Assembly (NCBI RefSeq): GCF_001735745.1
Contig: NZ_CP017260.1
Span: forward strand, 360,001-392,000
DNA: 32,000 nucleotides
Origin: Formosa sp. Hel1_33_131
GTDB taxonomy: Bacteria; Bacteroidota; Bacteroidia; Flavobacteriales; Flavobacteriaceae
Direction: 5' to 3'
The stretch's first letter is position 1. The number at the start of each line of letters is the position of its first letter. The notes under the pieces were generated by a model. That model did no database searches, was not told the origin of the DNA, and saw only the letters and a list, made by a program, of their open reading frames with translations. The translations under genes and the position numbers were made by a program. Shown piece by piece: positions 1,105 to 16,516 of this stretch.

Positions 1105-1116
1105 ATGATTTTATTT

Positions 1117-2220
1117 TTAAACTAAACCATATTGTTTAATCACTTTTTGTTTTAGTGGATTTAAACTCCAGTCTTCCCACGTACATGTACTCGGATTATA
1201 CCCACATTTTAAAGGTTTACTATATAAATCCATTGGATTTTCTATAAAAGCTCTACAATCTGTACAATTAAATCTAAATTCACAGTCTTTACAAGTATCA
1301 ATTTGAGTTTTATTTATTGTCCAAAACTTATTAAAAGTCTTTTCTTTAATAATATCTTTTATTTTAGTTTCTTTTAAATTACCGTGTATTAAATCCATTA
1401 CTGGACAATTTTTAATATTCCCTGATGAATCTATTGAAACTTTTTTATTTAAACATCCATTTTTTTCCTCTAATTCAATATGATTATTTATGTTTTCAAA
1501 ATTTAAGTTTTCTTTATTAATAACTCCACAACACTTCCCTTTATTAAAAGGATATGTAATAAAATATAGTTTACCGAAATGAAGTGGATAGAATCCTTCT
1601 TTTTCAATTGAAAAATCTACGATTTCTGATTTAGGTGAGCTATATATGTATATATGAGATATTGGAGAGTAGTTTAAAATTAAGTCATTTAAATCTTTCG
1701 TAGATACTTCTTCGGAATAAGTCAAATGCATTTCAACATAATTAATATTTGTTTTATTAATTATATCTAATATTTTCTTTTTAAAGTTTAAATTAAATTT
1801 AGAAAGAAACCTTAACTGTACATCGTTGCATCTCAACTCTTCAATTTCAGCTACTAATTGTGTAAACATTGTTTCTGAAAAATTACTCTCATCAATTTCT
1901 ATAATTACATCTTTTAATAACACAAACTCATCATCAACACAGTTTTCTCTTGCGGGATAACTATCTAAATTACTAGAAAAAAAACCTATTTCATTATGTA
2001 GTAAAAACTCTATAAACTCTGAAAATGATTTTTTAGACTCATCATTAATAGTTTCTTCTATTTCATTAATTCTATTTCTATTTAAAATTTGTATTAAATC
2101 AAAATATTCATTTGAAATAAAGTATAATTCATTTCTCAAATAATCAATTATTAAACTTCTTTTGAGTCCTTTAACCACCTTACAACTACTTGAAAGTATA
2201 AAAAAATTATTATTCATCAT
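1117..2220 (-). CDS. SPASM-domain peptide maturase lacking the radical-SAM CX3CX2C motif (grasp-with-spasm type)
   Basis: ORF-track frame 1117..2289. The likely true start is MMNNNFFILSSSCKVVKGLKRSLIIDYLR (ATG at 2220 or 2217), which matches the usual N-terminus of this family. The C-terminus carries a full SPASM Cys set: C-x15-C with G-x4-C (CLNKKVSIDSSGNIKNC), CKDCEFRFNCTDC, then CGYNPSTC. No CxxxCxxC occurs anywhere in the protein. Confidence 0.75.
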   Translation of the reverse strand: MMNNNFFILSSSCKVVKGLKRSLIIDYLRNELYFISNEYFDLIQILNRNRINEIEETINDESKKSFSEFIEFLLHNEIGFFSSNLDSYPARENCVDDEFVLLKDVIIEIDESNFSETMFTQLVAEIEELRCNDVQLRFLSKFNLNFKKKILDIINKTNINYVEMHLTYSEEVSTKDLNDLILNYSPISHIYIYSSPKSEIVDFSIEKEGFYPLHFGKLYFITYPFNKGKCCGVINKENLNFENINNHIELEEKNGCLNKKVSIDSSGNIKNCPVMDLIHGNLKETKIKDIIKEKTFNKFWTINKTQIDTCKDCEFRFNCTDCRAFIENPMDLYSKPLKCGYNPSTCTWEDWSLNPLKQKVIKQYGLV

Positions 2221-2428
2221 TGTTAAAAGTTTTAAAATTAATTGTTTTAGAAATTTGTCTATTTGGATAATAGTCTCGCATATTATCACACTGAAGAAAA
2301 GAATTATATTTTATCATTTTTAACTCATCATGAATAAATGTAATTTGATTATAATAAATCTTTCTAAAATGAAGAGGTATTTTATTAAGTTTTTCCCCTT
2401 TTAACTCTACTTTATTTAAATATTCCAT
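2210..2428 (-). CDS. Hypothetical 72-aa protein between the ATP-grasp and SPASM genes
   Basis: The ORF almost exactly fills the otherwise 191-nt gap between two operon genes. It overlaps the ATP-grasp stop by 17 nt and the proposed SPASM start by 11 nt, a translational-coupling-like layout. I recognise no family. Confidence 0.4.
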   Translation of the reverse strand: MEYLNKVELKGEKLNKIPLHFRKIYYNQITFIHDELKMIKYNSFLQCDNMRDYYPNRQISKTINFKTFNNDE

Positions 2429-3425
2429 TTATTAAATATTTTGCTATTATTTTATCTAAATTATAATTACATGGCTCTGAGACCATTCCATATTGACCTA
2501 CAGGATTTATTTCTAAAAACACATAGTCTCCATTCTTATTTATTATTAAATCTACAGAGCCACAGTTTAACTTTAATTCATTAAAGAGGTTATCTAATTT
2601 TACTTCAACATTTTTAGGTAATTTATATGGTTCTGTTTTATTTGGTTTTTGACTATTGTATTTTCTAAAATCTACTACTGTTTGGTTTGATGATTGAGAA
2701 AATATAACCATTGAAAAGAAGTGCCCGTCCAAGTAGAAAGTTCTAATTTCTGACTCCTTTTCAATTTGTTCCATAATTAGTGATGGGAAAAAGTGAATTT
2801 CTTCATTAGTAGTGTGTAGTAACTCGTCTTCTATAAGTTCGGTATAAGAATAAAATCTTTGGTTACCTATAATATTATAAACTCCATTAGATATAGCTTT
2901 TGAAATAAGATTAGGATTATTTTTACCAAATTCATACATTTGAGTAGTATTTCTAACAATTTTAAAATTTGGTATTTTTAACCCTTGCTTCTTTGCTATT
3001 TCATTAACAATCAGTTTATTCAAATTAAATGTAGGTTTTCCTAAATTAATTTTGCAATTTTGATAAACTTGATAATAAATAAAATCAATTAAATCTTCTA
3101 CTTCATTTTTTATAAGATCACTATTTTTATCAATAAGAGAAGTTAAGTTAAACCCCTTACTAAATAACACATCTTCCTTTTTTAAATCAGTAAAATAAGA
3201 TTTTCCAATACCTCTTCTACGCCACCAACATGCTTTTGCATCAAGTAAATTGAAAACTTTATTGGTCAAAGTGTTTTTAATAAAAATACCTTTAGACGTA
3301 ATTTTATCAAATTTATGTATTTCATCATCTGCATTTAATCTGATGACTTTTTCTCCAAAATATTCCAACCATCTAATTACATCTGAAGTAGAAATATCAT
3401 ATTTAATTGTGAAAATTATAATCAT
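2412..3425 (-). CDS. ATP-grasp peptide maturase (graspetide-type macrolactone/lactam ligase, grasp-with-spasm type)
   Basis: 337 aa. The N-terminus MIIIFTIKYDISTSDVIRWLEYFG is typical of RiPP ATP-grasp maturases from Bacteroidota. The C-terminal GSVDLIINKNGDYVFLEINPVGQYG is the ATP-grasp Mg/ATP-binding core. It lies 11 nt downstream of the precursor genes. Confidence 0.8.
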   Translation of the reverse strand: MIIIFTIKYDISTSDVIRWLEYFGEKVIRLNADDEIHKFDKITSKGIFIKNTLTNKVFNLLDAKACWWRRRGIGKSYFTDLKKEDVLFSKGFNLTSLIDKNSDLIKNEVEDLIDFIYYQVYQNCKINLGKPTFNLNKLIVNEIAKKQGLKIPNFKIVRNTTQMYEFGKNNPNLISKAISNGVYNIIGNQRFYSYTELIEDELLHTTNEEIHFFPSLIMEQIEKESEIRTFYLDGHFFSMVIFSQSSNQTVVDFRKYNSQKPNKTEPYKLPKNVEVKLDNLFNELKLNCGSVDLIINKNGDYVFLEINPVGQYGMVSEPCNYNLDKIIAKYLINGIFK

Positions 3426-3436
3426 GCCTTACTTAA

Positions 3437-3601
3437 TTAATCAACATCGTGTGAATGAGAATCATTATCATTAGCCGTTGTCATAGTATGACGATGACTA
3501 GTATTGGTAGCCGTATTATTAGTTATTTCCTGTTTGCCTCCAGTTATATTTTGCAATTTGGAAGAGCTTAATTGTTCTACTTTAAATTTATTTAGTTTCA
3601 T
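3437..3601 (-). CDS. Precursor peptide P1 (54 aa) with a double-glycine leader
   Basis: Hand translation: MKLNKFKVEQLSSSKLQNITGG|KQEITNNTATNTSHRHTMTTANDNDSHSHDVD*. It has a Bacteroidota GG-type leader and a core with 10 Ser/Thr in 32 residues. It sits 11 nt upstream of the ATP-grasp gene and is below the ORF-track size cutoff. Confidence 0.8.
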   Translation of the reverse strand: MKLNKFKVEQLSSSKLQNITGGKQEITNNTATNTSHRHTMTTANDNDSHSHDVD

Positions 3602-3612
3602 ATTTTTTTTAT

Positions 3613-3780
3613 TTAGTCTGAATCATTTCTGAGTGCATCTTGGTCTGAACAACAGCAAACTGTTTGTCTACGACTACTATGAGTAGGACCTTCAAATGCA
3701 ACTTCTTTCATCTGCCCTGCAGCTACATTTTGTAATACTGAAGTAGATAGTTGTTCGAATTGAAAATTTGATAGTTTCAT
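3613..3780 (-). CDS. Precursor peptide P2 (55 aa) with a GG-type (AG) leader
   Basis: Hand translation: MKLSNFQFEQLSTSVLQNVAAG|QMKEVAFEGPTHSSRRQTVCCCSDQDALRNDSD*. The leader is nearly identical at the nucleotide level to that of P3. There is an 11-nt gap to P1. Confidence 0.8.
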   Translation of the reverse strand: MKLSNFQFEQLSTSVLQNVAAGQMKEVAFEGPTHSSRRQTVCCCSDQDALRNDSD

Positions 3781-3848
3781 AATCTTTAGTTTTAATTATA
3801 TTTGTATTAGTTATACTATTTGTGTCTAGCTTTTAGTATAATAACAAT

Positions 3849-3877
3849 ACACAAGAGGATTAAAAACCCTCTTGTGT
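3849..3877 (-). terminator. Perfect 10-bp stem-loop after P3; candidate partial terminator or processing/stability hairpin
   Basis: ACACAAGAGG (3849-3858) and CCTCTTGTGT (3868-3877) are exact reverse complements with a 9-nt loop. The hairpin lies 20 nt past the P3 stop. No clear U-tract follows on the minus strand. Confidence 0.45.
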
Positions 3878-3897
3878 TAATTGAGAAAAACTATAGC

Positions 3898-4062
3898 TTA
3901 ATCGCTATCCTGTCTACCAGTATCGTGATCTGTACCAGTACATGTTGTTCTTCGTCTTCTAGTGCTTGTAACACCTTCGTCTTCTAAAGCCATAGTTCCT
4001 CCTGCAATATTTTGTAATTCAGAAGTAGATAGCTTTTCAAATTGAAAATTTGATAATTTCAT
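3898..4062 (-). CDS. Precursor peptide P3 (54 aa) with a double-glycine leader
   Basis: Hand translation: MKLSNFQFEKLSTSELQNIAGG|TMALEDEGVTSTRRRRTTCTGTDHDTGRQDSD*. It is the first of the three tandem precursor genes, 101 nt downstream of the OMP gene. Confidence 0.8.
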   Translation of the reverse strand: MKLSNFQFEKLSTSELQNIAGGTMALEDEGVTSTRRRRTTCTGTDHDTGRQDSD

Positions 4063-4117
4063 AATTTCAAAAGATTAGAATTATGCCTACTCTTTTTAAG
4101 GTTTTCGGCTTACCCTG

Positions 4118-4131
4118 ATTGTTGCAACAAT
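4118..4131. promoter_or_regulatory. Perfect 14-bp palindrome ATTGTTGCAACAAT upstream of the precursor genes; candidate operator
   Basis: Exact self-complementarity read directly from the sequence. It lies 55 nt upstream of the P3 ATG, in the OMP-P3 intergenic region. Confidence 0.35.
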
Positions 4132-4163
4132 TTTGTTATCAGATAAAAAACTGATTTATATTT

Positions 4164-6548
4164 TTAATTAAGTCTTTGTTTATCTTCGTTAAATTTAGCT
4201 ATCCTTCTTTGCTTTACATTTTTACTACCAATTTTATAAGTAAGTGAAAGTGTAAAATTTCTCATATCGTTATAAATACTTGAAGACTGTGTGAAATTCT
4301 GATACTGTTCTTCTCCTACATTTCTATTTTGTTTAAATAAATCATTTCCAGATATATTTACTTGAAGGTTCTCTTCAAGTAATCTAAATTTCAATCCTAA
4401 ATCAAGACTAGCTCTGTTTCTTGATTTAAAAAAACCATCTACGTTCGGAAAGCTTTGAAAGAAATTGATTGTAAAAAAGGATGTTCTTTTTTCGTTTAAA
4501 GAAATGGTGTTTTTTGTTGAAAAATAGACACCATAACCATCATAAGATTTTAATGTTTCATTTTCAAAATTTGAATTTGCTTTATTAAAATAAGTACTTA
4601 CAGAATTATAACTATTAACCCATTTAAAAAGTGTTAAACGATGGCTAACATCTAAACCATAAGTGTATTGATTATATAGGTTTTCCGGCTTCGTAATAAT
4701 CTCATTAGAATTTTCATTAGCTATAGTAATAAAGTCTATAACATCAATAAGCTTTGAACCATATAATATTAGCGATAAGTTGTTTTTATAAATGTATGAA
4801 AATTCTAAATTATGAGTAAATGAAGGCAATAAAAAAGGATCCCCCGATTCATAAGAATATGGGTCTGAATAAATTCTGAAAGGATTTAAATTTGAAAAAC
4901 CTGGTCTATCAATTCTTTTTGAATAAGACATAGATAGTGAATGATTTTCTTTTGGATCATATGAAATATATGCACTCGGAAAAATATTATTTAAATTATT
5001 AGTGTTTGTCTGGTTTAATGTAGGAGAGAAACCTTTTAAATAGGTATTTTCGTATCTTAAACCTATTTGTGCAATCCATTTTTCACTTAATTCTTTCTCT
5101 ATTGAAATATATAAGGCTGATGTTCTTTCTTCATATTCGAATTGATTAGACCTGTTTAAATTGATTATTGGAGTTCCATATGTTGTATCGTAGTAAAACA
5201 GACTACTATTATTATTTATAAAAGTTAATTTTCCTCCAACCTCTAAATCAAAAGCATCATAAGGTAGTGTGAAATCTGTTTTTAAAGATGCTACTTCATA
5301 TTTGTTATCAGAATTATTTAGAACAGATGTATTTAAACTATTAACACCATTACCCAGCCTATTAATACTATTGAAATCTATATCATTTGAACTATCTTTT
5401 ACTAAGTAATCGATATTTAAACTGAATTTCTTTCCAATACTATCTAGCTTTAAATCATAATATCCATTAATAGAATGAAAATTATACTTATTTTTATTTC
5501 TTGTTAACGTTGTTAAAATAGAGTCTAAAACAAAATTTTCCTTTTGAATAAAATTACTTATATTATTTCCTCTTTGACTAATATCCCAAAAACTACCGCT
5601 ATAAATAAATCCTGTTTCTGATTTTTCATTTATTTTATAATTCGAATTTAGATTTAGCATTAACCCTTTAGAAGAATCTTTTCTGTCTTTTGATGTATTC
5701 CAAAATCTAGAAGTGTATTCTACATCGTTTGTAGATATAGATTTTTTAGCTTCTGTATCAGCAGAGACGTTCAGTGATATATTTAATTTTTTAGTCGCAA
5801 ATTTCACATTACTGGTTGGTATAAAGGCAGCATATGTTCTTTGTATATATGTAGCTCCAACAGAACCATCCCATCCTAAGTTTGGATTTTTTTTAGTTAC
5901 AATATTAATTAAACCACTGTTTCCTTCAGCGTCATATTTAGCAGGAGGCGTTGTAATAACTTCTATTTTTGAAATATTGTCTGAACGAATACTTCTTAAA
6001 TATGCTTCTAAATCACTACTTGATAAATTGAGCACTCTTCCATCTATTAAAACATTAACACTACTTTTTCCAATAATTTTGATTCCACCACTTGAAACAT
6101 CAATTCTTGGAGTTCGTTGCAAAACTTCTAATCCATCAACTCCTTGAGAAACAATACTATTTTCAACATTAAAAATTAATCGGTCGACTTTTTTTTGGAT
6201 TAAAGGTTTTTTTGCTGAAATAACTATTTCATCTAATTTATTTTTACTGTGTATTAATGTAATATTACCTAAATCAATGTCTTTATTTTTAACTAGTACT
6301 TCTTTAACCCAGTCCTTATAACCAATAAAAGTAACTATTAAATTGTATTTTCCTTTTTTTGATTTTATTGTAAAAGAACCTTGATCGTTGGTTATAGAGC
6401 CTGAAACAAAATTATTATCAACGTCAGTCAATATAACATTCGCAAACTCTATATAGCTTATAGAGTCTTTTACCTTCCCCTTTACAATAATTTGAGAAAA
6501 AGAAAAAAAGGGAATAATTGAGGTTAAAGCTAATAATAAATACTTCAT
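4164..6548 (-). CDS. Outer-membrane beta-barrel / TonB-dependent-receptor-like protein with an N-terminal carboxypeptidase-regulatory-like domain
   Basis: 794 aa. There is a signal peptide (MKYLLLALTSIIPFFSFSQ), then a CarboxypepD_reg-like fold (IVKGKVKD...GSFTIKSKKGKYNLIVTFIGY). A plug-like segment follows (DEIVISAKKP...VDRLIFNVENS...LEVLQRTPRIDV...ISKIEVITTPPAKYDAEGNSGLINIVTKK), then a long barrel rich in aromatic and Asn residues. The C-terminus SLTYKIG plus a basic tail is typical of the Bacteroidota OMP_b-brl_3-type family. Confidence 0.8.
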   Translation of the reverse strand: MKYLLLALTSIIPFFSFSQIIVKGKVKDSISYIEFANVILTDVDNNFVSGSITNDQGSFTIKSKKGKYNLIVTFIGYKDWVKEVLVKNKDIDLGNITLIHSKNKLDEIVISAKKPLIQKKVDRLIFNVENSIVSQGVDGLEVLQRTPRIDVSSGGIKIIGKSSVNVLIDGRVLNLSSSDLEAYLRSIRSDNISKIEVITTPPAKYDAEGNSGLINIVTKKNPNLGWDGSVGATYIQRTYAAFIPTSNVKFATKKLNISLNVSADTEAKKSISTNDVEYTSRFWNTSKDRKDSSKGLMLNLNSNYKINEKSETGFIYSGSFWDISQRGNNISNFIQKENFVLDSILTTLTRNKNKYNFHSINGYYDLKLDSIGKKFSLNIDYLVKDSSNDIDFNSINRLGNGVNSLNTSVLNNSDNKYEVASLKTDFTLPYDAFDLEVGGKLTFINNNSSLFYYDTTYGTPIINLNRSNQFEYEERTSALYISIEKELSEKWIAQIGLRYENTYLKGFSPTLNQTNTNNLNNIFPSAYISYDPKENHSLSMSYSKRIDRPGFSNLNPFRIYSDPYSYESGDPFLLPSFTHNLEFSYIYKNNLSLILYGSKLIDVIDFITIANENSNEIITKPENLYNQYTYGLDVSHRLTLFKWVNSYNSVSTYFNKANSNFENETLKSYDGYGVYFSTKNTISLNEKRTSFFTINFFQSFPNVDGFFKSRNRASLDLGLKFRLLEENLQVNISGNDLFKQNRNVGEEQYQNFTQSSSIYNDMRNFTLSLTYKIGSKNVKQRRIAKFNEDKQRLN

Positions 6549-6607
6549 GTTTTTAATTGATTTGAGACTCTAAACTTACAACTAGATTCAACTTAAACAA
6601 AACTTAT

Positions 6608-6651
6608 GTAGTTGAAATTTATAAATTTCATGTCCGTATTTATAAATTTCA
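6608..6651. promoter_or_regulatory. Two copies of a palindromic operator in the divergent OMP/lanB promoter region
   Basis: GAAATTTATAAATTTC at 6614-6629 is a perfect 16-bp palindrome. The 14-mer ATTTATAAATTTCA recurs exactly 21 bp later (6617 and 6638). The same 14-mer is also found at 11591. Confidence 0.6.
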
Positions 6652-6755
6652 GCCTCTATAATTATTTATAAAACACTCATTTTGAGGTTTTTAAATTTAT
6701 TTTAGGAACTAATTATAAAATCCGTAGATTTACAGTCCCAAAACCTACTTAGTGC

Positions 6756-9008
6756 ATGTTAAAACCTAAAAACCCTTATACTTTTTTCAATACTTATTGT
6801 TTAAGAACACCTCTTTTACCATTGAATCGGGTTTTAAATGCACTACAAAAAAGAGGTTTTGAGGATGAGTCTCTAAAAGAGTATTGGCAAAACACTCATT
6901 TAAAAGAAGCTGTTTTTTTAGCATCGCCCTACCTTTTCTCTGAACTAGAATTACTATTTGAGGGAACAATCACTTCTGTAAAAAAAGCAGAAAAGTTAAA
7001 ACAAAGCTTTTTAAAATATGTTCTCAGAGCCTCCTCTCGTTGTACGCCTTTTGGACTGTTCTCTGGAGTCTCTTTAGGTCATTTTAATGATACAAGTTGT
7101 ATAGAACTAGAAACAACTAAAACCTTGAAACGCCGAACACGTTTGGATGTGAACTATATGGTTGCGCTCTCAAACTATTTAGAAAAAGAGCCCGTCATAA
7201 AAAACCAATTGGTGTTTTACCCCAACAGTTCGCTCTATAAAATTGCGGATCAATATCGATATATTGCATTTGAAATAGATGGTTTAAAACGCTCTTATGC
7301 TGTTGAAGGCATAGAGTATTCGGTTTATATAGAGACCGTCTTAAATGAAGCTAAAATGGGTAAAACCATTACTGAATTGGCCGTTACAATTACGGACGAA
7401 ACGATCACTGAAGAGGAAGCCACCCACTTTATTCATGAACTCATAGACAACCAGGTCTTAAGTAGTGAATTAGAACACTCTATTTCAGGAACTGATATGC
7501 TATCCCAAACACTAGTGACCTTAAAACAATTAAAACAGTGTGACTCTAATATACAAGACCTACTTAGCATTCAAAAAACACTTCAAAAATTAGATGACAC
7601 TGACAGAAATACCAGTGAAGATTATAAAAAATGTAATCCGATTTTAGAGGCCCTTGGCGTGCCTTATGAGACGAAAGATGTGTTTCAAACGGATCTTTTT
7701 ACAACGACTAAAAACAATGCTTTAAACAAAAAAGTAGCGCACGAATTACGCCGGGCTTTACCACTTTTAAGTAGCCTTAACAAAAAAGATCACAACCCTC
7801 ATTTAGAGCAATTCAAAAAAGCGTTTAAAGAGCGTTATGAAACAAGAAAAATTCCATTAGCTATGGCTTTGGATATAGAAATGGGAGTTGGCTACATTCA
7901 AAATGAAGCTGTTTCAAATACCGTTTCGTTTTTAAATGACATTACGCCTCAAACAGATCACTCCTCTTCTCAAAACTTCTCTTTATCAGAAATTGAAATT
8001 AGCATTCAAAAATTAATGTTTGATGCATTAAAGAATCAGCACTATAGCATTGAACTAAAGGAAGCAATTTTCGCGGATCGTGAAGTGTCTATAGATCATT
8101 TACCTGACACCCTTTCCGCACTCATTGAAGTGATTACTCTAAACAATGAAGAATGTGTTTACATACACTCTTTTGGAGGTTCCAATGGGGCTAATTTACT
8201 TGCTCGGTTTTGTGAGGAGACTGGAGAATTATTTGATTACGTTAAAGAAATGACCTGTATAGAACAGCAGATGAACCCACACAGTGTTTTAGTTGAACTC
8301 ATCCATTTGCCTGAAGCTAGAGTTGGAAATGTGATTAAAAGACCGCATTTAAGAGCTTATGAATTGCCCTATCTCGGCAAGTCTAATCTGCCGTTAGAAC
8401 AGCAAATTAATATTAATGATGTTTTAGTATTTATTAAAAACAACCGTATTGTTTTATGGTCAAAAAAATTAGACAAAGCCATTCTACCTCGTTTAACAAA
8501 TGCTCATAATTACACAAAAAATACGCTTCCTATCTATCATTTTTTATGTGATTTACAAACTCAAAATATTCAAAAAAAGCTTGGATTTTCTTGGGGCGCA
8601 CTCGCCAACAATCATTCCTTTTTACCTAGAGTGTGTTATAAAACCCTCATTCTTTCCAAAGCCACTTGGATTATTGAAACTAAAAAATTTCAATCTTTAT
8701 TTAAATTAGACAAAAACGGAGCGAACTTATTGGATTTAATAAGCGGGTGGAGAGCAACTATTCAAATGCCTCAATATGTTCAGTTAAAAGAAGCCGATAA
8801 TACGTTACTTATAAATCTCGAAAATACAACAATGCTTCATTTGTTATTCGATTCGGTTAAACGCAAAACACAGTTTATCTTAGAAGAATTTTTATTTACA
8901 GAAAAACCTATCGTAAAAAATGAGGATAATGATTTTTTTACGAATCAATTTGTAGTGTCATTTTACAATGAGGAAAAACTAAAAAAAGCTGTTAATTATG
9001 CAAACTAG
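6756..9008 (+). CDS. Lantibiotic dehydratase family protein (LanB N-terminal, tRNA-Glu-dependent glutamylation domain)
   Basis: 750 aa. The N-terminus NPYTFFNTYCLRTPLLPLN and the RCTPFGLFSGVSLG motif are hallmarks of the Lant_dehydr_N family. The size fits a stand-alone glutamylation domain. Confidence 0.85.
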   Translation: MLKPKNPYTFFNTYCLRTPLLPLNRVLNALQKRGFEDESLKEYWQNTHLKEAVFLASPYLFSELELLFEGTITSVKKAEKLKQSFLKYVLRASSRCTPFGLFSGVSLGHFNDTSCIELETTKTLKRRTRLDVNYMVALSNYLEKEPVIKNQLVFYPNSSLYKIADQYRYIAFEIDGLKRSYAVEGIEYSVYIETVLNEAKMGKTITELAVTITDETITEEEATHFIHELIDNQVLSSELEHSISGTDMLSQTLVTLKQLKQCDSNIQDLLSIQKTLQKLDDTDRNTSEDYKKCNPILEALGVPYETKDVFQTDLFTTTKNNALNKKVAHELRRALPLLSSLNKKDHNPHLEQFKKAFKERYETRKIPLAMALDIEMGVGYIQNEAVSNTVSFLNDITPQTDHSSSQNFSLSEIEISIQKLMFDALKNQHYSIELKEAIFADREVSIDHLPDTLSALIEVITLNNEECVYIHSFGGSNGANLLARFCEETGELFDYVKEMTCIEQQMNPHSVLVELIHLPEARVGNVIKRPHLRAYELPYLGKSNLPLEQQININDVLVFIKNNRIVLWSKKLDKAILPRLTNAHNYTKNTLPIYHFLCDLQTQNIQKKLGFSWGALANNHSFLPRVCYKTLILSKATWIIETKKFQSLFKLDKNGANLLDLISGWRATIQMPQYVQLKEADNTLLINLENTTMLHLLFDSVKRKTQFILEEFLFTEKPIVKNEDNDFFTNQFVVSFYNEEKLKKAVNYAN

Positions 9009-9858
9009 ATTTTTTTTAGGGGATGAATGGATTTACTATAAATTGTATTGTGGTAAACGAACAGCGGATCATATTCTTGTGGATATTATAAAGCCATTTA
9101 CTGAAAAACTATTAAAAGAAAACCTAATCACCAAATGGTTCTTTATTCGGTATCACGACCCTAACCATCATTTACGGGTGCGCTTTCATTGTGAAGATCT
9201 TTCTAAAATAGGGACGATTATTAATACCTTTAAAAATGCGATCGACCATCAAGTTGCTAATGACTTTATTTGGAAGGTTCAAACAGATACCTACCAAAGA
9301 GAAATTGAACGCTATGGGAAACTCACAATGATTGGATCAGAGAATCTGTTTTTTCATGACAGCAGCACTAGCATTAATGCTTTGAATTTGATTGAAGATG
9401 AGGAACTCTTATTTTTATTTGTTTTAAAATCCATAGATGCATTGTTAAGTGTTTTTGAATACGATTTAAAAGCTAAAATTAGTTTCTCTAAAGTGAACCT
9501 GACTTCTTATAGAAATGAGTTTAAAGCGGAGAAAAACTTCAGCAAACAGCTAAATAAAAAATATCAAAAATTAAGACCTAAAGTGGAATCGTTCATGGCT
9601 TTAAAAGAAAGTAGTGATTATGACGCTCTCTTAAACTTAATAACGACTAAGAATAGAGAAATCGAAACAATTAAAACACCTATTTTAGAGTTGCATAAAA
9701 ATAATAAATTAGAAGTTCCGTTAAATCATTTACTATCTAGTTATATACACATGATGGTCAACCGTCAATTTAGAGACAAACAACGTTTATTTGAATTGGT
9801 TTGTTATGATTGCCTATTTCGATATTACAACAGCCTATTTGCAAAACAATTAAATTAA
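8998..9858 (+). CDS. Thiopeptide-type bacteriocin biosynthesis domain protein (LanB C-terminal / SpaB_C glutamate-elimination domain)
   Basis: 286 aa. WIYYKLYCGKRTADHILVDIIKPF...KWFFIRYHDPNHHLRVRFH is the signature of Lant_dehydr_C. It overlaps the upstream gene by 11 nt, giving a split LanB as in thiopeptide systems. Confidence 0.8.
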   Translation: MQTRFFLGDEWIYYKLYCGKRTADHILVDIIKPFTEKLLKENLITKWFFIRYHDPNHHLRVRFHCEDLSKIGTIINTFKNAIDHQVANDFIWKVQTDTYQREIERYGKLTMIGSENLFFHDSSTSINALNLIEDEELLFLFVLKSIDALLSVFEYDLKAKISFSKVNLTSYRNEFKAEKNFSKQLNKKYQKLRPKVESFMALKESSDYDALLNLITTKNREIETIKTPILELHKNNKLEVPLNHLLSSYIHMMVNRQFRDKQRLFELVCYDCLFRYYNSLFAKQLN

Positions 9859-9864
9859 CTCAAC

Positions 9865-11541
9865 GTGAAGTATAAATTATCCCCCATATTTATCTTTCTA
9901 TTTCTGACTTCAACCCTTTGGAGCCAACAAACGGCTTTAAGTTATGAAGTTTTAGAAAACAATATTAAGACTTCAAAGTCAGATTCTATTCGTGAAATAT
10001 ATGCTTCGACGTTACTTTTAAAAGCAAAAAAAGAAAATAATGTTCTAAAAATTGCTGATGGCTATAATCATTTGTCAGAAATTAACTCCCACACTTTAAG
10101 TGGTTTAAAATATGCTGATAGTATTATTGACTTGACAGCTACATTAATAAATTCAAAATACCCTGCTGAAGGTTATCTTCAAAAAGGAATTCAGTTGTTT
10201 TATTTAGCAAAACATAATGAATCCTTAGACAATTATATTAGGGCTCTTAATGATTTTCAGGCAAATAATAATACTTATGGAAAAGTAAGAGTGAACCATT
10301 ATATAGGTCTATTAAAAAACAGTATAAATGAAGAGAAAGAAGCGTTAGAAATTTTTAAAAAAAATATTTCTTTTTTTGAAAGTTCAAAAAATAAACATTT
10401 ATACAAAAGACAATACTTAAAGTCCTTATTTGCAATTGTAGATTCTTATAACAGAAATAAAATATTAGATTCAGCAGAAATATATGGAAGAATGGGTATT
10501 AAGGAAAGCTTTCAAAGTCATGACAAGTATTTGTATAATTATTTTTTATTATCATATGGATCAACTAAAACTTTTAAGGGAGAATATAAAGTAGCGATTG
10601 ACAGTCTTATTAAAGGCACCAAATTATTAACAAATGAAAAGCTTGTAATAGCAGGAAGTTATTTGATTTTAAGTCAAGCTTTTGAAGGCCTAAAAGAGTA
10701 TTCAAAATCATTACTATATTTAGATAAAGTAGATTCATTATATCAAAAAAATCCTGAAACAATATTTCAAGCAAAGGAATCTTATAAGATTTTACTTAAG
10801 TATAGTCAAAAAGAAAATAATCCCCAAAAGCAATTAAATACAATTAAAAAACTTCTTAAAGTTGATAGTATTATTAATGTTAAACACAATCAGTTAAGTA
10901 AGAATATTGTAAAAAAACATGATACTCCAGAATTAATTTTAGAAAAAGAACGCATAATTAAACAATTGAATAATAGTTATTCTTTATCCAAAAATAAAAT
11001 TATTATTTTATCTATTGTCATTATCTTCTTAATTATCATTTTGCTTTATAGTATAAGAAAAAGCATAATTAATAAGAAAAAATTTGAAATTATTAAAGCA
11101 AAAATTAATTCCGATGTTAAAGAAGAAAACAAAGAAAATTTAATAAAGGTTACTACTACAACTACTATTACTACTGGAATACCCGAAGATTTAGTAAAAG
11201 AAATTATACTTAGTTTAGAGAAATTTGAAAGTTCAAATAAGTTTTCAAAAAAACATTATACATTAAACACCCTTGCAAAAGAACTAAAAACAAACAGCAC
11301 CTATTTATCTAAAGTAATAAATGCAACAAAAGAAGCAAATTTTGCTAATTATTTGAACAATTTAAAAGTTGATTTTGCTATTAAAAGGTTATCAAAGAAT
11401 AAGCAATTTAGAGCATATACAATAAAAGCTATTGCAGAGGATTCTGGTTTTAATAACGCACAATCATTTTCGGCTGCATTTCATAAAAAAACAGGTATTT
11501 ATCCATCATATTTTATTAAAGAACTTAATAATGAAAAATGA
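9865..11541 (+). CDS. Membrane-spanning one-component regulator: signal peptide, TPR-like repeats, one TM helix, C-terminal AraC-type HTH
   Basis: GTG start. The signal peptide is MKYKLSPIFIFLFLTSTLWSQQ. About 340 aa of helical-repeat sequence follow, then the TM helix IIILSIVIIFLIIILLYSI and a basic stretch RKSIINKKK. The C-terminus HYTLNTLAKELKTNSTYLSKVIN...IKAIAEDSGFNNAQSFSAAFHKKTGIYPSYF is an AraC/XylS HTH. Confidence 0.8.
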   Translation: MKYKLSPIFIFLFLTSTLWSQQTALSYEVLENNIKTSKSDSIREIYASTLLLKAKKENNVLKIADGYNHLSEINSHTLSGLKYADSIIDLTATLINSKYPAEGYLQKGIQLFYLAKHNESLDNYIRALNDFQANNNTYGKVRVNHYIGLLKNSINEEKEALEIFKKNISFFESSKNKHLYKRQYLKSLFAIVDSYNRNKILDSAEIYGRMGIKESFQSHDKYLYNYFLLSYGSTKTFKGEYKVAIDSLIKGTKLLTNEKLVIAGSYLILSQAFEGLKEYSKSLLYLDKVDSLYQKNPETIFQAKESYKILLKYSQKENNPQKQLNTIKKLLKVDSIINVKHNQLSKNIVKKHDTPELILEKERIIKQLNNSYSLSKNKIIILSIVIIFLIIILLYSIRKSIINKKKFEIIKAKINSDVKEENKENLIKVTTTTTITTGIPEDLVKEIILSLEKFESSNKFSKKHYTLNTLAKELKTNSTYLSKVINATKEANFANYLNNLKVDFAIKRLSKNKQFRAYTIKAIAEDSGFNNAQSFSAAFHKKTGIYPSYFIKELNNEK

Positions 11542-11581
11542 ATTCAAGTTGTTGATTTAAAAAGTCTTGGCTAATTATTTT

Positions 11582-11604
11582 GTTGTTGATATTTATAAAT
11601 TTCA
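11582..11604. promoter_or_regulatory. Third copy of the palindromic operator, upstream of peptide P4
   Basis: GTTGTTGATATTTATAAATTTCA matches 6608-6630 at 21 of 23 positions. The 16-mer at 11588-11603 is 15/16 identical to the perfect palindrome. GTTGATATTTATAAATTTCAAC (11585-11606) is itself a 22-bp near-palindrome. It lies 65 nt upstream of the P4 ATG. Confidence 0.6.
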
Positions 11605-11668
11605 ACATATAAAATAGCATTAAATCAAAATTATAGCAGTAGATTTATAAAACTCTAAATTTAAAATT

Positions 11669-11815
11669 ATGAAAAAAACAGAATTAAAAAAAGAAAAACT
11701 TGGAATTAAAAAATTTCAAATTTCAAAAATCAACAACCCTCAATTAATAATTGGTGGGAATGCTAATTTAGGTGATGATGATGACGGCGATCATCCAACA
11801 CTAGTAACTAAATAG
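11669..11815 (+). CDS. Small GG-leader peptide P4 (48 aa)
   Basis: Hand translation: MKKTELKKEKLGIKKFQISKINNPQLIIGG|NANLGDDDDGDHPTLVTK*. The leader resembles P1-P3 (KFQISKI...LIIGG versus NFQFEKL...LQNIAGG). It has its own operator upstream and a strong terminator downstream. It is below the ORF-track cutoff. Confidence 0.7.
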   Translation: MKKTELKKEKLGIKKFQISKINNPQLIIGGNANLGDDDDGDHPTLVTK

Positions 11816-11860
11816 AAAAAACACACACCATATTCTAATTTATTATGGTGTGTGTTTTTT
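11816..11860 (+). terminator. Rho-independent terminator / attenuator after P4
   Basis: ACACACACCATA (11821-11832) and TATGGTGTGTGT (11844-11855) form an exact 12-bp stem with an 11-nt loop. A T-run follows (to 11860) and an A-run precedes it. Confidence 0.75.
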
Positions 11861-11875
11861 AAATTAATAAACCCT

Positions 11876-14053
11876 ATGAACTATAAATCTATTGCTATTT
11901 TAATTCTATGTATTTTAATTATGCAATGTAAAAATAAGAAAGAATTAGTGTTAGCACCAATTAATGTTGTTGTTGATGAAATTCATGGACAAAGAATAGA
12001 AGATCCGTATCGTTATATGGAAAATATTGATGATAGTATTTATATAAATTGGTTAAAAGGTCAAAAAGAAAATAAAGAATCAGTAGTAGGTAATATTTCT
12101 AATAGAGATAATTTAAAATTAAAAATAGAAAAGTTTCAAGAAAGGACTCCTGAAAAAATCTCAAAACTAACAATCATGGATAATGATGTTTACTTTTATT
12201 TAAAAGAGAACACAACATCTAAAGTAAAAAAACTGTATTCAAGAGATGGCTTTAAAGGAGAAGAAGTTTTATTATATAATCCTGAAAACTTTGATAATGA
12301 ACATCCTTATGTAATAAATTATATTAAACCTAGTTGGGATACTTCAAAAGTAGTTATAGGCTTAACAAAAAATGACGAAGAATTTTCAATATTAAAAATC
12401 CTTGATGTAAAAACTAAAAATTTAGTTGGAGATATTAAAATAACTAATACACTTCCAACTTCTCTAGGAGGTGTTAAATGGTTGCCTGATGATTCTGGTA
12501 TTATTTATGTAAATGTACCAGTAATTGATTCTAAATCTAAAAAATATTTACACAATTCGGAAGTTGTACTATATAGATTTAATGATAACCCTAAAGAATC
12601 TCCCACTGTTATTTTTTCAAAAAAGGAGAATCCAAAACTGAAAATAAAGGAAGAAGATTTCCCGTTAATTTACTTAGACAACCAAAATGTTGAATATATT
12701 ATTGGAGTGGTTACTAGAGCTTCAAGATATAGAGATACTTATTATATAAAAATAGATGAACTTAATAATAAAAAAATTAAATGGGAGCCATTATTTAAAA
12801 AAGAAGAAAAGATTAAACGCTTTATTGTTACAAAAGATGAAATCATTTATATGACTTCAAAAACAACTCCCAATTTTCAAATATGTAAAACCTCACTAAG
12901 TAATCCTGATTTTGAAAATCCACAAGTTTTAGTTTATGAGAATACTAAAGAAGTTATTACAGATTTTGTTATAACAAAACAAGGCTTGTTTTTCGTAAAA
13001 ATAAAAAATGGTGTTGATGCAAAACTTTATAAAATAGAAAATAATCAAGAAAAAAATATCGAGATCCCAAAACCTTCAGGAAGTATAAATGTATCCTCCA
13101 AAAATGAAAACTCTAATGATTTATGGATATCGATTGATGGGTGGACGCATAAAAAAGAGACCTATAAATATGATTATGATAAAAGTGTATTTATCCCTCA
13201 AAATTTATACCCAGTAGCAGAATATTCGTTACTCAATGATGTGGTTGTTAAAGAAATTGAAGTACCATCGTATGATGGTACATTAGTTCCATTATCTGTA
13301 ATTTATAAAAATAGCATTAAATTAAATGGAGAAAACAGAATGTTACTTACTGGCTATGGCGCTTATGGCATAACTGATAAACCTGTGTTAGACGACTATT
13401 TACTAAACTGGATTAATGAAGGAGGAATCTATGCTTTAGCACATGTGAGAGGTGGAGGAGAAAAAGGAGATGCATGGCATAAAGAAGGGTTTAAAACAAC
13501 AAAACCAAATACATGGAAGGACTTTATTTCGTGTACTGAATATTTGATTGATAAAGAATATACTTCAAATAAAAATTTAGCTGTTTGGAGCGGAAGTGCT
13601 GGAGGAATACTTGTAGGTAGAGCGATTACTGAACGTCCAGATTTATATGCTGCCGCAATAATACGGGTCGGATTACTAAATACTTTACGTTCAGAGTTCG
13701 CTCCAAACGGAAAAAATAATATTAAAGAATTTGGAACAATTAAAGATTCATTAGAATTTAAATCTCTATTAGAAATGGATGCGTTTCACAACATAAAAGA
13801 TGGTGTTGAGTATCCAGCAGTTTACTTAACAGGAGGTATGAATGATGCTAGAGTTGCTGTTTGGCAACCTAGCAAATTTGCTGCAAAATTGCAAAAAGCA
13901 AATGCTTCTGAAAATCCTATTATTTTAGATATTGATTTTGATGGTGGTCATGGATTTGATGCAACTTCAAATAAAAAAAATAATGAATTAGCAGATATAC
14001 TTTCTTTTGCACTCTGGCAAACTGGACATCCAGATTATCAATTGAATAGATAG
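11876..14053 (+). CDS. Prolyl oligopeptidase (S9A family), lipoprotein, copy 1
   Basis: I prefer ATG 11876 (MNYKSIAILILCILIMQCKNK, signal plus lipobox-like Cys) over the track's GTG 11852, which lies inside the terminator stem. The N-terminal beta-propeller region and C-terminal hydrolase domain carry an intact triad context: GSAGG (Ser), GGMNDARV (Asp), DGGHG (His). Confidence 0.9.
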   Translation: MNYKSIAILILCILIMQCKNKKELVLAPINVVVDEIHGQRIEDPYRYMENIDDSIYINWLKGQKENKESVVGNISNRDNLKLKIEKFQERTPEKISKLTIMDNDVYFYLKENTTSKVKKLYSRDGFKGEEVLLYNPENFDNEHPYVINYIKPSWDTSKVVIGLTKNDEEFSILKILDVKTKNLVGDIKITNTLPTSLGGVKWLPDDSGIIYVNVPVIDSKSKKYLHNSEVVLYRFNDNPKESPTVIFSKKENPKLKIKEEDFPLIYLDNQNVEYIIGVVTRASRYRDTYYIKIDELNNKKIKWEPLFKKEEKIKRFIVTKDEIIYMTSKTTPNFQICKTSLSNPDFENPQVLVYENTKEVITDFVITKQGLFFVKIKNGVDAKLYKIENNQEKNIEIPKPSGSINVSSKNENSNDLWISIDGWTHKKETYKYDYDKSVFIPQNLYPVAEYSLLNDVVVKEIEVPSYDGTLVPLSVIYKNSIKLNGENRMLLTGYGAYGITDKPVLDDYLLNWINEGGIYALAHVRGGGEKGDAWHKEGFKTTKPNTWKDFISCTEYLIDKEYTSNKNLAVWSGSAGGILVGRAITERPDLYAAAIIRVGLLNTLRSEFAPNGKNNIKEFGTIKDSLEFKSLLEMDAFHNIKDGVEYPAVYLTGGMNDARVAVWQPSKFAAKLQKANASENPIILDIDFDGGHGFDATSNKKNNELADILSFALWQTGHPDYQLNR

Positions 14054-14099
14054 CGTAGCATTAACAATAGTTAAAATTAGAGTCATATAAGAATTGTTT

Positions 14100-16268
14100 A
14101 TGAAAATCATTAGATTAAAACTATTACTTTTAGTTGTGTGTGTTTTTAGTTGTAAAACTAACAACAATACATCTATAGAAATGTTGCCAGAAAAAGAAGT
14201 GGTTGAGGAATATTTTGGAACGACTGTTAAAGATTCTTATAAATATATGGAAAACCTCAATGATACTATCGTTTTAAATTGGTATAAACAACAAAGTAAC
14301 TATGCTAAGAATAAAATTGATAAGATTCACAATCGAAATAAAATTTTGAAGTTTCAAAATATTATAACTAACAATACATCTAAAATTTCAAATATTTTAA
14401 TAACTAATAATAACCTATATTTTTATTTAAAGAATCATAATGACACAAAAGAGCTCTTTTATAGAGAAGGGATTCATGGTGAGGAGTATTTTTTATTTAA
14501 TCCTGAAAAACATAAAAAAGGAAGTGCTATAAATTATATTGCTCCTAGTTGGGATGGATCAAAAGTAGCAATAGCTATGACTAAAGATGACTTAGAAATT
14601 GGCAATATCATTGTTTTAGATGTATCTAATAAAAAACTATACAACGAATCCATAAATAATTGCTGGCCTTCAGCCTTAGGTGGAATAAGATGGCTTGCTG
14701 ATAATTCTAGATTTACCTACGAATATATCCCCGTTATTGATAAAAAAGAAAAGAATTATTTATTTAATACCGAAACTCGTTTACATGTTTTGGGAGAAAA
14801 CCCTGTTAACGACAGAATATTATTTTCAAATAAAAACAATCCTGAGATTGAAATAAAAGAAGAAGATTTCCCTGAGGTTTCTATTAGCAACGAAAAAAGC
14901 AATTACATATTTGGGAGTGTTTGGGGGGCTAGCTATTATGCTGATTACTACTCCTCCTCTATTGAAAATATTAACAACCAAAAAATCACATGGAAGCCTC
15001 TTTTTAAAAAAGAAGATTTAATAAAGCGGTTTTATTTAGAGGGTGATTATATAGTTTATTTATCCGCAAAAAAAGCTAAAAATTTTGAGATCTGTAGAAC
15101 TTCATTAATTAATCCAAATTTTGAAGATCCAGAAATTTTAGTCTCCGAAGATGAATCATCTGTAATCACAGATTTAACTTTAACAAGCAAAGGATTGTTT
15201 TTTGTTAAAACAAAGAATGGAGTTGAGGCTAAGTTATATCAATTTATTAATAAGAATAAGATCAATAATATTACTCTACCCAAAGAAGCTGGTTATATTA
15301 ATGTTTCTTCTAATGGGAATTTATTCCCTGACTTGAGAATTGAAATTAAAGGTTGGTTGTCCGACAAAGAACGTTATCAATTTAATCATAAAACAAATCA
15401 GTTTACTAAAGAACAATTAGCCAAAGAAAATGGCAATAATGATGAATTATTTGATGGAATTATAATTGAAGAAATAGAAATCATATCGCATGATGGAGTG
15501 AAAGTTCCATTATCACTAATTTATAACAAAGACCTAGAATTAAATGGCCAAAATAGAGTGCTAATAAAAGGATATGGAGCATATGGAATAACTCAAAAAC
15601 CTTTTTTGGATCCTTATATACTGCCTTGGCTAAAAGAAGGTGGGATTTATGCGATGGCGCATGTAAGAGGAGGAGGAGAAAAAGGCGACTTCTGGCATAA
15701 AAGTGGGTATAAAGAAACAAAACCTAATACATGGAAAGACCTAATAGCCTGTTCGGAATATCTTATCCATAAAAAGTACTCTTCTAGTAGTAAAACTGTT
15801 ATTTATAGCGGCAGTGCTGGGGGTATTTTAATAGGTCGAGCCATAACTGAAAGACCAGATTTGTTTGCAGCAGCTATTATAAGAGTTGGAGTACTAAATA
15901 CTTTAAGGTATGAGTTTTCACCAAATGGAAAAAATAATACTAAAGAGTTAGGTTCAGTCCAAGATTCCATTGGATTTAAAGGTTTGCTTGAGATGGATGC
16001 TTATCAGCATATTGAAAAAGGAGTAAAATACCCCGCAGTATACTTGACAGCTGGATTAAATGATTCTAGAGTATCCGTTTGGCAACCAGGGAAATTTGCC
16101 GCTAAACTACAAGCTGCAACCACTTCAAATAATCCAGTATTTCTTAATGTAGATTCAGAAGGAGGACATGGACTTGATACTTCTAAAAATAAGAAAAATA
16201 AAGAAATTGCCGATATCCTCTCTTTTGCATTATGGCAAACAGGGCATCCAGATTTTCAGTTGAAATAA
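14100..16268 (+). CDS. Prolyl oligopeptidase (S9A family), lipoprotein, copy 2 (tandem paralogue)
   Basis: I prefer ATG 14100 (MKIIRLKLLLLVVCVFSCKTNN, lipobox Cys) over the track's TTG 14094. The protein is collinear with copy 1, sharing long identical runs (GYGAYGIT, AHVRGGGEKGD, TKPNTWKD, GRAITERPDL, ADILSFALWQTGHPD). Triad contexts GSAGG, GLNDSRV and EGGHG are intact. Confidence 0.9.
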   Translation: MKIIRLKLLLLVVCVFSCKTNNNTSIEMLPEKEVVEEYFGTTVKDSYKYMENLNDTIVLNWYKQQSNYAKNKIDKIHNRNKILKFQNIITNNTSKISNILITNNNLYFYLKNHNDTKELFYREGIHGEEYFLFNPEKHKKGSAINYIAPSWDGSKVAIAMTKDDLEIGNIIVLDVSNKKLYNESINNCWPSALGGIRWLADNSRFTYEYIPVIDKKEKNYLFNTETRLHVLGENPVNDRILFSNKNNPEIEIKEEDFPEVSISNEKSNYIFGSVWGASYYADYYSSSIENINNQKITWKPLFKKEDLIKRFYLEGDYIVYLSAKKAKNFEICRTSLINPNFEDPEILVSEDESSVITDLTLTSKGLFFVKTKNGVEAKLYQFINKNKINNITLPKEAGYINVSSNGNLFPDLRIEIKGWLSDKERYQFNHKTNQFTKEQLAKENGNNDELFDGIIIEEIEIISHDGVKVPLSLIYNKDLELNGQNRVLIKGYGAYGITQKPFLDPYILPWLKEGGIYAMAHVRGGGEKGDFWHKSGYKETKPNTWKDLIACSEYLIHKKYSSSSKTVIYSGSAGGILIGRAITERPDLFAAAIIRVGVLNTLRYEFSPNGKNNTKELGSVQDSIGFKGLLEMDAYQHIEKGVKYPAVYLTAGLNDSRVSVWQPGKFAAKLQAATTSNNPVFLNVDSEGGHGLDTSKNKKNKEIADILSFALWQTGHPDFQLK

Positions 16269-16281
16269 GACTCTCTGAAAA

Positions 16282-16511: not shown

Positions 16512-16516
16512 TAACT

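Follow-up and report, generated by a model that had tools for sequence, protein, structure and literature searches.

A split LanB dehydratase pair without a LanC cyclase, encoded head to head with a graspetide module in Formosa sp. Hel1_33_131

Split LanB dehydratases and the LxLxKx5L...GG leader of Bacteroidota precursors have been described previously (Walker et al. 2020, PMC7268733). Here we analysed such a dehydratase in Formosa sp. Hel1_33_131, encoded by adjacent genes for a glutamylation protein (LanB-N) and an elimination protein (LanB-C) within a 32,000-nucleotide stretch of contig NZ_CP017260.1 (positions 360,001 to 392,000; hereafter the window). The locus resembles the class I clusters of Bacteroidota with split LanBs (pinensin type) in its homologous LanB halves (~40% LanB-N identity to LanC-containing sister loci), the GG leader type, the AraC/TPR regulator and the C39-ABC exporter, and Kordia loci of this type have the order LanB-N, LanB-C, AraC, LanA. 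By contrast, the cassette in the window has no LanC, its cores and those of its relatives are mostly Cys-free, short, acidic and hydrophilic, and an S9 or S8 lipoprotein protease is added. Given the lack of LanC, the mostly Cys-free cores and the added protease, the products would therefore not be lanthipeptides by definition. Split LanBs also occur in thiopeptide and goadsporin pathways (TbtB/TbtC and GodF/GodG), where the dehydro residues are not all used in thioethers. The window shares the split dehydratase with these pathways, and its LanB-C matches the 'thiopeptide-type' family TIGR03891; unlike them, it has no YcaO, azoline dehydrogenase, [4+2] cyclase or second Lant_dehydr_C-like protein among the open reading frames (ORFs) of the island. 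Small LanB/PEARL ligases, which consist of a glutamylation-like domain without an elimination partner and add amino acids at the precursor C terminus, differ from the full-length 750-aa LanB-N of the window, which is translationally coupled to an intact elimination protein.

We found that the window probably contains two separable modules for peptides made by ribosomes and modified after translation (RiPPs), arranged head to head: a graspetide module (1–6548) with the precursors P1–P3, and a self-contained LanB cassette (~6600–16268) with a precursor of its own, P4 (Table 1). We put the probability of this reading, which is drawn from gene content and comparison of related loci, at roughly 0.6. 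The most likely product of the cassette is a short, linear peptide containing dehydrobutyrine (Dhb), which would be exported and then trimmed by lipoprotein prolyl peptidases, and which may be sensed by the AraC/TPR protein. As there is no ring-forming partner and P4 is Cys-free, this product would be an unringed dehydrated peptide, not a lantibiotic. As enzymes, LanB-N and LanB-C are unexceptional within the LanB family, and the graspetide module is already known; the novelty is the LanC-less layout of the cassette. We found no description of a LanC-less cassette of LanB, AraC/TPR regulator, peptide and S9 or S8 protease in the searchable literature, the coverage of which is incomplete.

The dehydratase pair and the missing cyclase

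LanB-N matched PF04738 (Lant_dehydr_N) from end to end (E 2.3e-132), and LanB-C, on a separate polypeptide, matched PF14028 (Lant_dehydr_C; E 1.6e-64) and TIGR03891 (E 2.3e-66). Residues R91, R95, T97, D131, D313 and R484 of LanB-N aligned with the glutamylation residues of NisB (which we take to be R83, R87, T89, D121, D299 and R464 in NisB numbering), and these positions were invariant or nearly so among 32 homologues. LanB-C retained the elimination-site motifs FIRY, YQREIERYG and HMMVNR. Comparison with a 92%-identical homologue gave dN/dS values of 0.22 for LanB-N and 0.18 for LanB-C, indicating purifying selection. Because the catalytic residues and motifs are intact and selection is purifying, the two halves appear to be functional genes that together form a two-gene dehydratase, not remnants of one. 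Homologues of LanB-N numbered in the hundreds, nearly all of them from Bacteroidota and mostly from Flavobacteriaceae, and 33 sequences, from Tara, ENA, Logan and NCBI assemblies (ocean and other metagenomes), belong to its 90%-identity cluster. The protein was nearest to full-length lanthipeptide LanBs (9g04, E 7e-41; NisB, E 3e-19), and no TbtB-type thiopeptide chain reached E 1e-3 against it. The window has no tRNA gene, so it provides neither a dedicated tRNA-Glu nor a tRNA integration site.

We scanned the 21 window ORFs of at least 60 aa, excluding those lying largely inside a longer ORF, against Pfam, and none of them encoded LanC, YcaO, LanM, LanKC or LanL. A LanC hidden Markov model (HMM), built from 53 LanC proteins of sister loci and run with filters off, found nothing better than E 0.54 in any of the six frames of the window; together with the Pfam scan of the large ORFs, this rules out a LanC or YcaO concealed in a small or unannotated frame. 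We also examined a metagenome contig (L093) that carries an identical LanB-N in the same locus and reaches 3.2 kb beyond the left edge of the window. This additional sequence contains no LanC or YcaO, and encodes only the remainder of the C39-ABC exporter, a HlyD-like protein and an AI-2E transporter, which rules out a LanC just beyond that edge.

These results bear out much of the original prediction, which had described separate ORFs of 750 and 286 aa overlapping by 11 nt and no LanC-, YcaO- or class II–IV synthetase-like ORF in the window. It had also allowed for a LanC immediately to the left, where the 3.2 kb of L093 hold none. Its view that lanthionine is not the general outcome gains support, as no cyclase is present, and retention of dehydroamino acids, which it had raised as one outcome, is likely in the absence of a cyclase. 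Measured against class I lanthipeptide pathways, the locus has the glutamylation domain, the elimination domain and, on P4, the leader of a cognate Bacteroidota LanA-type precursor, and it lacks a LanC in the cluster and a Cys in the P4 core.

To place the locus among its relatives, we compared 80 loci from representative genomes and several metagenome contigs, giving 83 LanB loci for counting (46 with LanC and 37 without); a LanB-N search of metagenome contigs yielded 6 loci that added little context. Neighbouring ORFs were clustered from ATG starts only, and some N termini and the GTG-start AraC gene of the window were handled by hand. The dehydratase was split into two adjacent genes in all loci that we fetched. 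In 46 loci the clustering recovered a 404-aa family, LanC according to Pfam, within the 10-kb flanks, and in the loci inspected it lay immediately upstream of LanB-N. In a LanB-N tree, the LanC-adjacent systems grouped together and the window fell in LanC-less branches. The absence of LanC therefore appears to be a trait of whole branches of this tree and not an artefact of the window edge. LanA-like peptides of LanC-containing loci had a mean of 4.09 Cys and were Cys-free in 2% of cases (n=115), whereas those of LanC-less loci had a mean of 0.94 Cys and were Cys-free in 36% (n=36), all of the latter group containing at least one Ser or Thr. A lost cyclase is thus accompanied by lost Cys residues, with the substrate for dehydration retained.

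P4 and the LanB cassette

The original prediction had found no precursor adjacent to the dehydratase. We found that P4, 2.7 kb downstream of LanB-N, fills this role in position, leader and regulation, and that claim does not stand. The P4 gene was called in four assemblies, and a peptide occupies the same position in L001, L003, L005, L010, L022, L081, L086 and other loci. We built a leader HMM from 97 canonical, Cys-containing LanA peptides taken from LanC-containing loci only, with E values calculated for 6612 small ORFs. P4 scored 16.8 bits against it (E 0.0023), as compared with 6.5 bits for P1, 0.5 for P3 and −1.0 for P2, and the graspetide leaders of L069 and L076 scored 1.7 and −0.2 bits. 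A palindromic operator with the core ATTTATAAAT precedes both LanB-N and P4. Operator matches numbered 5 in the window where 0.39 were expected, and none of 100 shuffles reached 5. Additionally, ~90 bp of promoter region are duplicated between the sites upstream of LanB-N and P4 (repeat families D10, D14 and D17), and in at least 13 related loci the same two positions carry the ATTyATrAAT element. The conserved position, the leader score and the shared operator and promoter therefore argue that P4 is the cognate LanA-like precursor of the cassette, as predicted from these sequence features.

P4 (leader, MKKTELKKEKLGIKKFQISKINNPQLIIGG; core, NANLGDDDDGDHPTLVTK, with two Thr, no Cys and one Pro) and its relatives share the leader KLxIxKFQISKIxNPxxIxGG, and their cores are hypervariable and acidic (VAMNDDPIKTSPTIR in L001, GDDDPIKTTPTIIDDANN in L003, NNGEPIKTKPTIRARQ in L022 and NNNLGELGNGIRNNDDDDDDDTISDQK in L086). 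Of 23 syntenic cores at the P4 position in LanC-less loci, 13 are Cys-free; we found no universal core motif, and an acidic run followed by T-[ILV] was present in only 11 of the 23. In L001, the neighbouring GG peptides have cores (NAVECIEVKKEKKKERK) without any Ser or Thr, so the LanB there can act only on the P4-like peptide. The hairpin that follows the P4 stop codon has a folding energy of −22.7 kcal/mol (z = −7.4; 0 of 200 shuffles equally stable). It was missed by the terminator scan, its loop exceeding 8 nt, and was folded directly. A sigma-70 promoter scan returned 43 sites against 49.6 expected; Bacteroidota use another promoter consensus.

The order LanB-N, LanB-C, AraC/TPR regulator, small GG peptide, S9 or S8 protease is found in the window and in L001, L003, L005, L022 and L081, and also in L086, L053, L063, L069, L076 and L027, from genera that include Polaribacter, Tenacibaculum, Psychroserpens, Winogradskyella and Chryseobacterium, and from uncultured marine flavobacteria. 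The regulator consists of a signal peptide, a TPR-like extracytoplasmic domain of ~350 aa (the TPR_12 match is weak), a transmembrane helix at ~382–403 and a cytoplasmic AraC-type helix-turn-helix, and the central transmembrane helix is present in 51 of 53 homologues. From the conserved placement of the operators, this protein is the obvious candidate to bind the ATTTATAAAT palindromes. Because the operator pair lies in the intergenic region common to LanB-N and the minus-strand operon, the graspetide module may be co-regulated with the LanB cassette.

S9 or S8 proteases accompany 17 of the 37 LanC-less loci and 2 of the 46 LanC-containing loci (Fisher p = 8e-6, with shared ancestry ignored), and nearly all of them have lipoprotein-type signal peptides. 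In the window these end in IMQC (S9 protein 1) and VFSC (S9 protein 2), and the nearest solved structures of S9 protein 1 are prolyl endopeptidases (2bkl, E 5e-66). The two tandem paralogues are 52% identical in amino acids and 70–78% identical in nucleotides in several repeat segments; the majority of relatives carry a single copy, and L001 has a C39-ABC exporter gene in place of the second. We considered whether the prolyl peptidase could act as an amanitin- or PCY1-type macrocyclase that excises 'IKT[STK]P' from between two prolines, as the cores of L001, L003 and L022 would allow, and rejected this as a general role because the window P4 has one Pro and the L086 peptide none.

The window's left edge cuts through the exporter gene, which is for this reason absent from the ORF list and was overlooked by the original prediction. 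By tblastn, positions 1–1104 are 72–77% identical to the C39-ABC genes of L069, L076 and L027, and they match TIGR01193 and TIGR03796. The full gene in L093 encodes 728 aa, with a HlyD-like partner. This C39-ABC protein is the exporter expected to cleave all four GG-leader peptides. In gene content, the cluster has both parts of a two-step leader-processing route, the C39-ABC exporter and exported proteases.

Table 1. Features of the peptide island (coordinates within the window)
Feature	Position	Strand	Description
C39-ABC exporter	1–1104	-	C39-peptidase/ABC bacteriocin exporter (PCAT), N-terminal 368 aa; off left window edge
SPASM protein	1117–2289	-	SPASM-domain peptide maturase; TIGR04193, PF13186; real start probably near 2220
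72-aa protein	2210–2428	-	Small protein between ATP-grasp and SPASM genes; contains KIPLHF; LPL-like position
ATP-grasp enzyme	2412–3425	-	ATP-grasp peptide maturase (graspetide macrocyclase); TIGR04192
P1	3437–3601	-	Graspetide precursor; 22-aa leader ending GG, 32-aa core, 10 Ser/Thr, 0 Cys
P2	3613–3780	-	Graspetide precursor; leader ending AG, CCC in core
P3	3898–4062	-	Graspetide precursor; 10 Ser/Thr in 32-residue core, 1 Cys
OMP_b-brl_3 protein	4164–6548	-	Outer-membrane beta-barrel, TonB-receptor-like; first gene of minus-strand operon; PF14905, E 3.6e-91
Operator pair	6613–6651	.	Divergent LanB-N/OMP intergenic region; perfect 18-bp palindrome TGAAATTTATAAATTTCA and second copy ATTTATAAATTTCA
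LanB-N	6756–9008	+	750 aa; glutamyl-tRNA-dependent glutamylation half of split class-I-type dehydratase; PF04738
LanB-C	8998–9858	+	286 aa; glutamate-elimination half; PF14028, TIGR03891
AraC/TPR regulator	9865–11541	+	Membrane-anchored one-component regulator; 558 aa, GTG start; PF12833 at 470–551
Third operator copy	11587–11604	.	TGATATTTATAAATTTCA; ~80 bp upstream of P4
P4	11669–11815	+	LanA-like precursor, predicted LanB substrate; 48 aa
Hairpin	11816–11860	+	Terminator or attenuator; 17-bp stem and U-run, directly after P4 stop
S9 lipoprotein 1	11876–14053	+	S9A prolyl-endopeptidase-like; predicted post-export trimming protease; PF00326, PF02897; ORF-list GTG start 11852
S9 lipoprotein 2	14100–16268	+	S9A prolyl-endopeptidase-like; tandem paralogue; repeat family D1 and others

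A proposed pathway and its rivals

Under the two-module reading, and following the chemistry of the family, LanB-N would use Glu-tRNA to glutamylate Thr14 and Thr17 of the P4 core (NANLGDDDDGDHP-T-LV-T-K), and LanB-C would then eliminate glutamate to leave Dhb. The Dhb residues would persist, as there is no LanC and no Cys. Judging from the leader type and the genes present, the C39-ABC/HlyD exporter would cut P4 after GG and export it, and the lipoprotein prolyl peptidases may strip the acidic spacer after Pro13, leaving T-L-V-T-K (~5 residues). More speculatively, the exposed N-terminal Dhb might convert to a 2-oxobutyryl group, as an N-terminal dehydro residue does in Pep5. The AraC/TPR protein would bind the palindromes and co-regulate LanB, P4 and the divergent operon, as the operator placement suggests. 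In known two-step leader removal, the transporter cleaves after GG and CylA or LicP then trims the peptide extracellularly, and the predicted removal of the P4 spacer mirrors this. The locus resembles the CylA/LicP and Pep5 systems in its GG leader, its C39-ABC protein, the spacer between GG and a conserved Thr, and the exported protease encoded right after the precursor. It differs in that the protease is of family S9A (S8 in some relatives) and is a lipoprotein of a Gram-negative bacterium, in that the cleavage sites are predicted, and in that one relative has no Pro in its core.

A further, tentative extension is that the LanB, AraC/TPR, peptide and protease genes form a Bacteroidota peptide-pheromone circuit, not an antibiotic pathway; we hold this to be possible, though clearly less probable than the two-module arrangement itself. 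In such a circuit, P4 would be dehydrated, exported, cut very short by the surface lipoprotein peptidases and sensed by the extracytoplasmic TPR domain, and the AraC regulator would activate its own cassette together with the head-to-head bacteriocin or RiPP module, which in the window is the graspetide operon. The comparison with L001, a Tara Oceans contig, bears on this idea. Window positions 6600–9938 are 94.2% identical in nucleotides to 7950–11290 of L001, a block that takes in the operators, the two LanB genes and the sequence for the AraC signal peptide. Beyond 9938, identity falls to ~30–35% in amino acids for the AraC sensor, ~80% for its helix-turn-helix and 52–56% for the proteases; the P4 leader region is 75.7% identical in nucleotides and the peptide cores are unrelated. 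The modification enzyme is thus constant, while sensor, peptide core and protease change together. Such co-variation is typical of signalling loci with diversified pherotypes, for example agr and comQXP, although simple linkage of adjacent genes explains the mosaic equally well.

The cassette also shares with ComC/BlpC and nisin-NisRK circuits a small GG peptide, a C39-ABC protein, an adjacent membrane sensor, operators before the peptide gene, the modification genes and a neighbouring bacteriocin-like operon, and a sensor, core and protease that diverge together while LanB stays 94% identical in nucleotides. It is unlike them in having a one-component transmembrane AraC/TPR sensor in place of a histidine kinase and a peptide that would be LanB-modified. 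The flanks of the LanB block are unrelated between the window and L001 or only 67–76% identical, and the G+C content of the block is 31–36%, as compared with 24–27% in its flanks. The 94% block and this G+C contrast suggest that the LanB genes alone were recombined or transferred recently.

Several observations weigh against two separable modules and a trimmed Dhb peptide. With no more than two Thr and a very hydrophilic character, the P4 core is unlike known LanB products. The core of L086, which belongs to a close cassette with an S9 protease, has no Pro, and trimming after proline is therefore not the universal role of the protease. The LanB-N tree of 83 sequences was built by neighbour joining and has no support values, and the absence of LanC covers the 32-kb window and 3.2 kb of L093, the remainder of the ~2.7-Mb genome not having been searched for it. 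Finally, ATP-grasp modules adjoin LanB in 5 of the 37 LanC-less loci and in none of the 46 LanC loci (p = 0.015, with shared ancestry ignored), and the operator pair sits in the intergenic region from which the minus-strand operon starts; functional coupling with the graspetide module is therefore possible.

This last point is the basis of an alternative that we regard as unlikely, in which LanB also or mainly dehydrates P1–P3, so that the products combine ATP-grasp esters, SPASM chemistry and dehydro residues; spontaneous thioethers could then form in P2 and P3. The ATP-grasp gene (with or without SPASM) stands head to head with LanB in the window, L053, L069, L076 and L084, which come from different genera and have ATP-grasp proteins only 32–34% identical, and P1 and P3 each offer 10 Ser/Thr. 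Carter et al. 2026 (PMC13097080) report that lanthipeptide dehydratases in rare cases occur together with graspetide gene clusters, which we also count in favour; neither that survey nor PMC8939145 lists LanB as a frequent graspetide-associated family. However, the nearest LanB relatives (92%, 61%, 58% and 57% identity) have no ATP-grasp module, the leaders of P1–P3, like those of the L069 and L076 graspetides, do not fit the LanA model that P4 fits, and all five ATP-grasp loci keep a P4-like peptide of their own beside AraC. The neighbouring peptides of L001, being free of Ser and Thr, offer nothing to dehydrate. We therefore read the five adjacencies as a shared exporter, shared regulation or a shared island location, not as shared substrates. 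The idea in the original prediction that LanB and the ATP-grasp enzyme compete for the same hydroxyl side chains likewise finds no comparative support, since the 92%-identical LanB relative has no ATP-grasp module and the GG cores next to it have no Ser or Thr. All four GG-leader peptides that it had listed as candidate substrates do exist, and its counts hold (10 Ser/Thr in the 32-residue cores of P1 and P3, no Cys in P1 and P4), but the four are not equivalent, as P1–P3 belong to the graspetide module.

That LanC is encoded elsewhere in the genome and cyclises P2, P3 or an unlinked precursor in trans, as part of an ordinary class I lanthipeptide pathway, is very improbable. P2 and P3 do contain Cys, and the sequence inspected is a small part of the genome. 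Against this, all 46 related LanC genes lie close to LanB-N, the whole clade around the window lacks LanC and its syntenic peptides are largely Cys-free, housekeeping genes bound the island on both sides, and P2 and P3 have no LanA-type leader. Least credible is a decaying remnant of a cluster that lost LanC: LanC and core Cys have indeed been lost relative to the sister clades, but the genes are under purifying selection with all catalytic motifs intact, the 90%-identity cluster of LanB-N is well populated (33 members), and many genera keep the cassette, together with an operator and protease of its own.

The neighbouring module, the island and significance

The minus-strand module is alike in every component to grasp-with-spasm systems, and nothing within it differs: it has an ATP-grasp enzyme, a SPASM protein, a small LPL-like protein, several divergent GG-leader precursors of the Thr...Asp type, a C39-ABC exporter, a HlyD-like protein and an OMP_b-brl_3 barrel. 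Published surveys list such systems as branch 5 (Makarova et al. 2022, PMC8939145) and group 14 (Carter et al. 2026, PMC13097080). By its genes it belongs to this class, as the ATP-grasp enzyme matched TIGR04192 (E 1.6e-108, 363 bits; cut-off 230) and the SPASM protein TIGR04193 (E 4.2e-102, 342 bits; cut-off 175), both above the trusted cut-offs, with adjacent Thr/Ser...Asp/Glu precursors. The 72-aa protein was predicted as a gene in four independent assemblies and had no Pfam or NCBIfam match; we call it LPL-like on the basis of its position and motif, as described in PMC8939145, where the OMP_b-brl_3 family is also among the graspetide-associated genes. A gene of the OMP_b-brl_3 type is divergent from LanB-N in L085 and L092 as well. 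P1–P3 share the pattern T...DxD...DxD and are, on sequence grounds, the predicted substrates of this already catalogued module. A hairpin with a 13-bp stem (3849–3877, minus strand) directly follows P3 and precedes P2 and P1, and P3, the first precursor, may be expressed at a level different from that of P1 and P2.

The divergent neighbour of the LanB cassette differs between loci. In place of the graspetide module, L001 has proteins of 432 and 167 aa without a Pfam match (5252–7047, minus strand) and two GG-leader peptides with Lys/Glu-rich cores (7550–7841, minus strand), which may be an undescribed peptide-modification module. L085, whose LanB-N is 61% identical to that of the window, has at 688–6259 (minus strand) a radical-SAM enzyme, a family-9 glycosyltransferase, a 276-aa unknown protein and a 66-aa peptide, and L003 has class-II-like bacteriocins. 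Upstream of LanB-N in four LanC-less loci (L063, L026, L016 and L007), between it and the exporter genes, lies an unannotated family of ~104 aa (cluster 9), joined in L063 and L016 by an unannotated family of ~415 aa (cluster 105); both could be further conserved parts of some cassettes.

The left boundary of the island, seen in L093, is the AI-2E transporter gene. To the right there is a step in G+C content, from 24–36% in 1–17,000 to ~40% in the arginine-biosynthesis operon (17237–26058). A 49-nt direct repeat (94% identical; 16349–16397 and 17118–17166) flanks a ParD/ParE-like toxin-antitoxin pair (16517–17052), which suggests joint insertion of the two genes between the peptide island and the arginine operon. 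Unrelated to LanB, the minus strand at 26574–31869 encodes a 1556-aa protein that has LamG/laminin-G domains and a type IX secretion C-terminal sorting domain, and after it a 211-aa protein that matches this sorting domain weakly.

Searches of genomes for lanthipeptides start from LanC or from precursors that contain Cys, and so they pass over this LanC-less group, in which about half of the 37 loci share the layout of regulator, peptide and protease. If LanB acts on these Cys-free peptides, they would represent a distinct product type, short linear peptides with Dhb that are trimmed by proteases, made by marine flavobacteria that are abundant, and would offer a clean natural setting in which to study LanB chemistry uncoupled from cyclisation. 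Should the peptide be a signal, it would add a rare case of peptide-based cell-cell signalling in Bacteroidota, and would provide a means of switching on the silent graspetide and bacteriocin clusters nearby.

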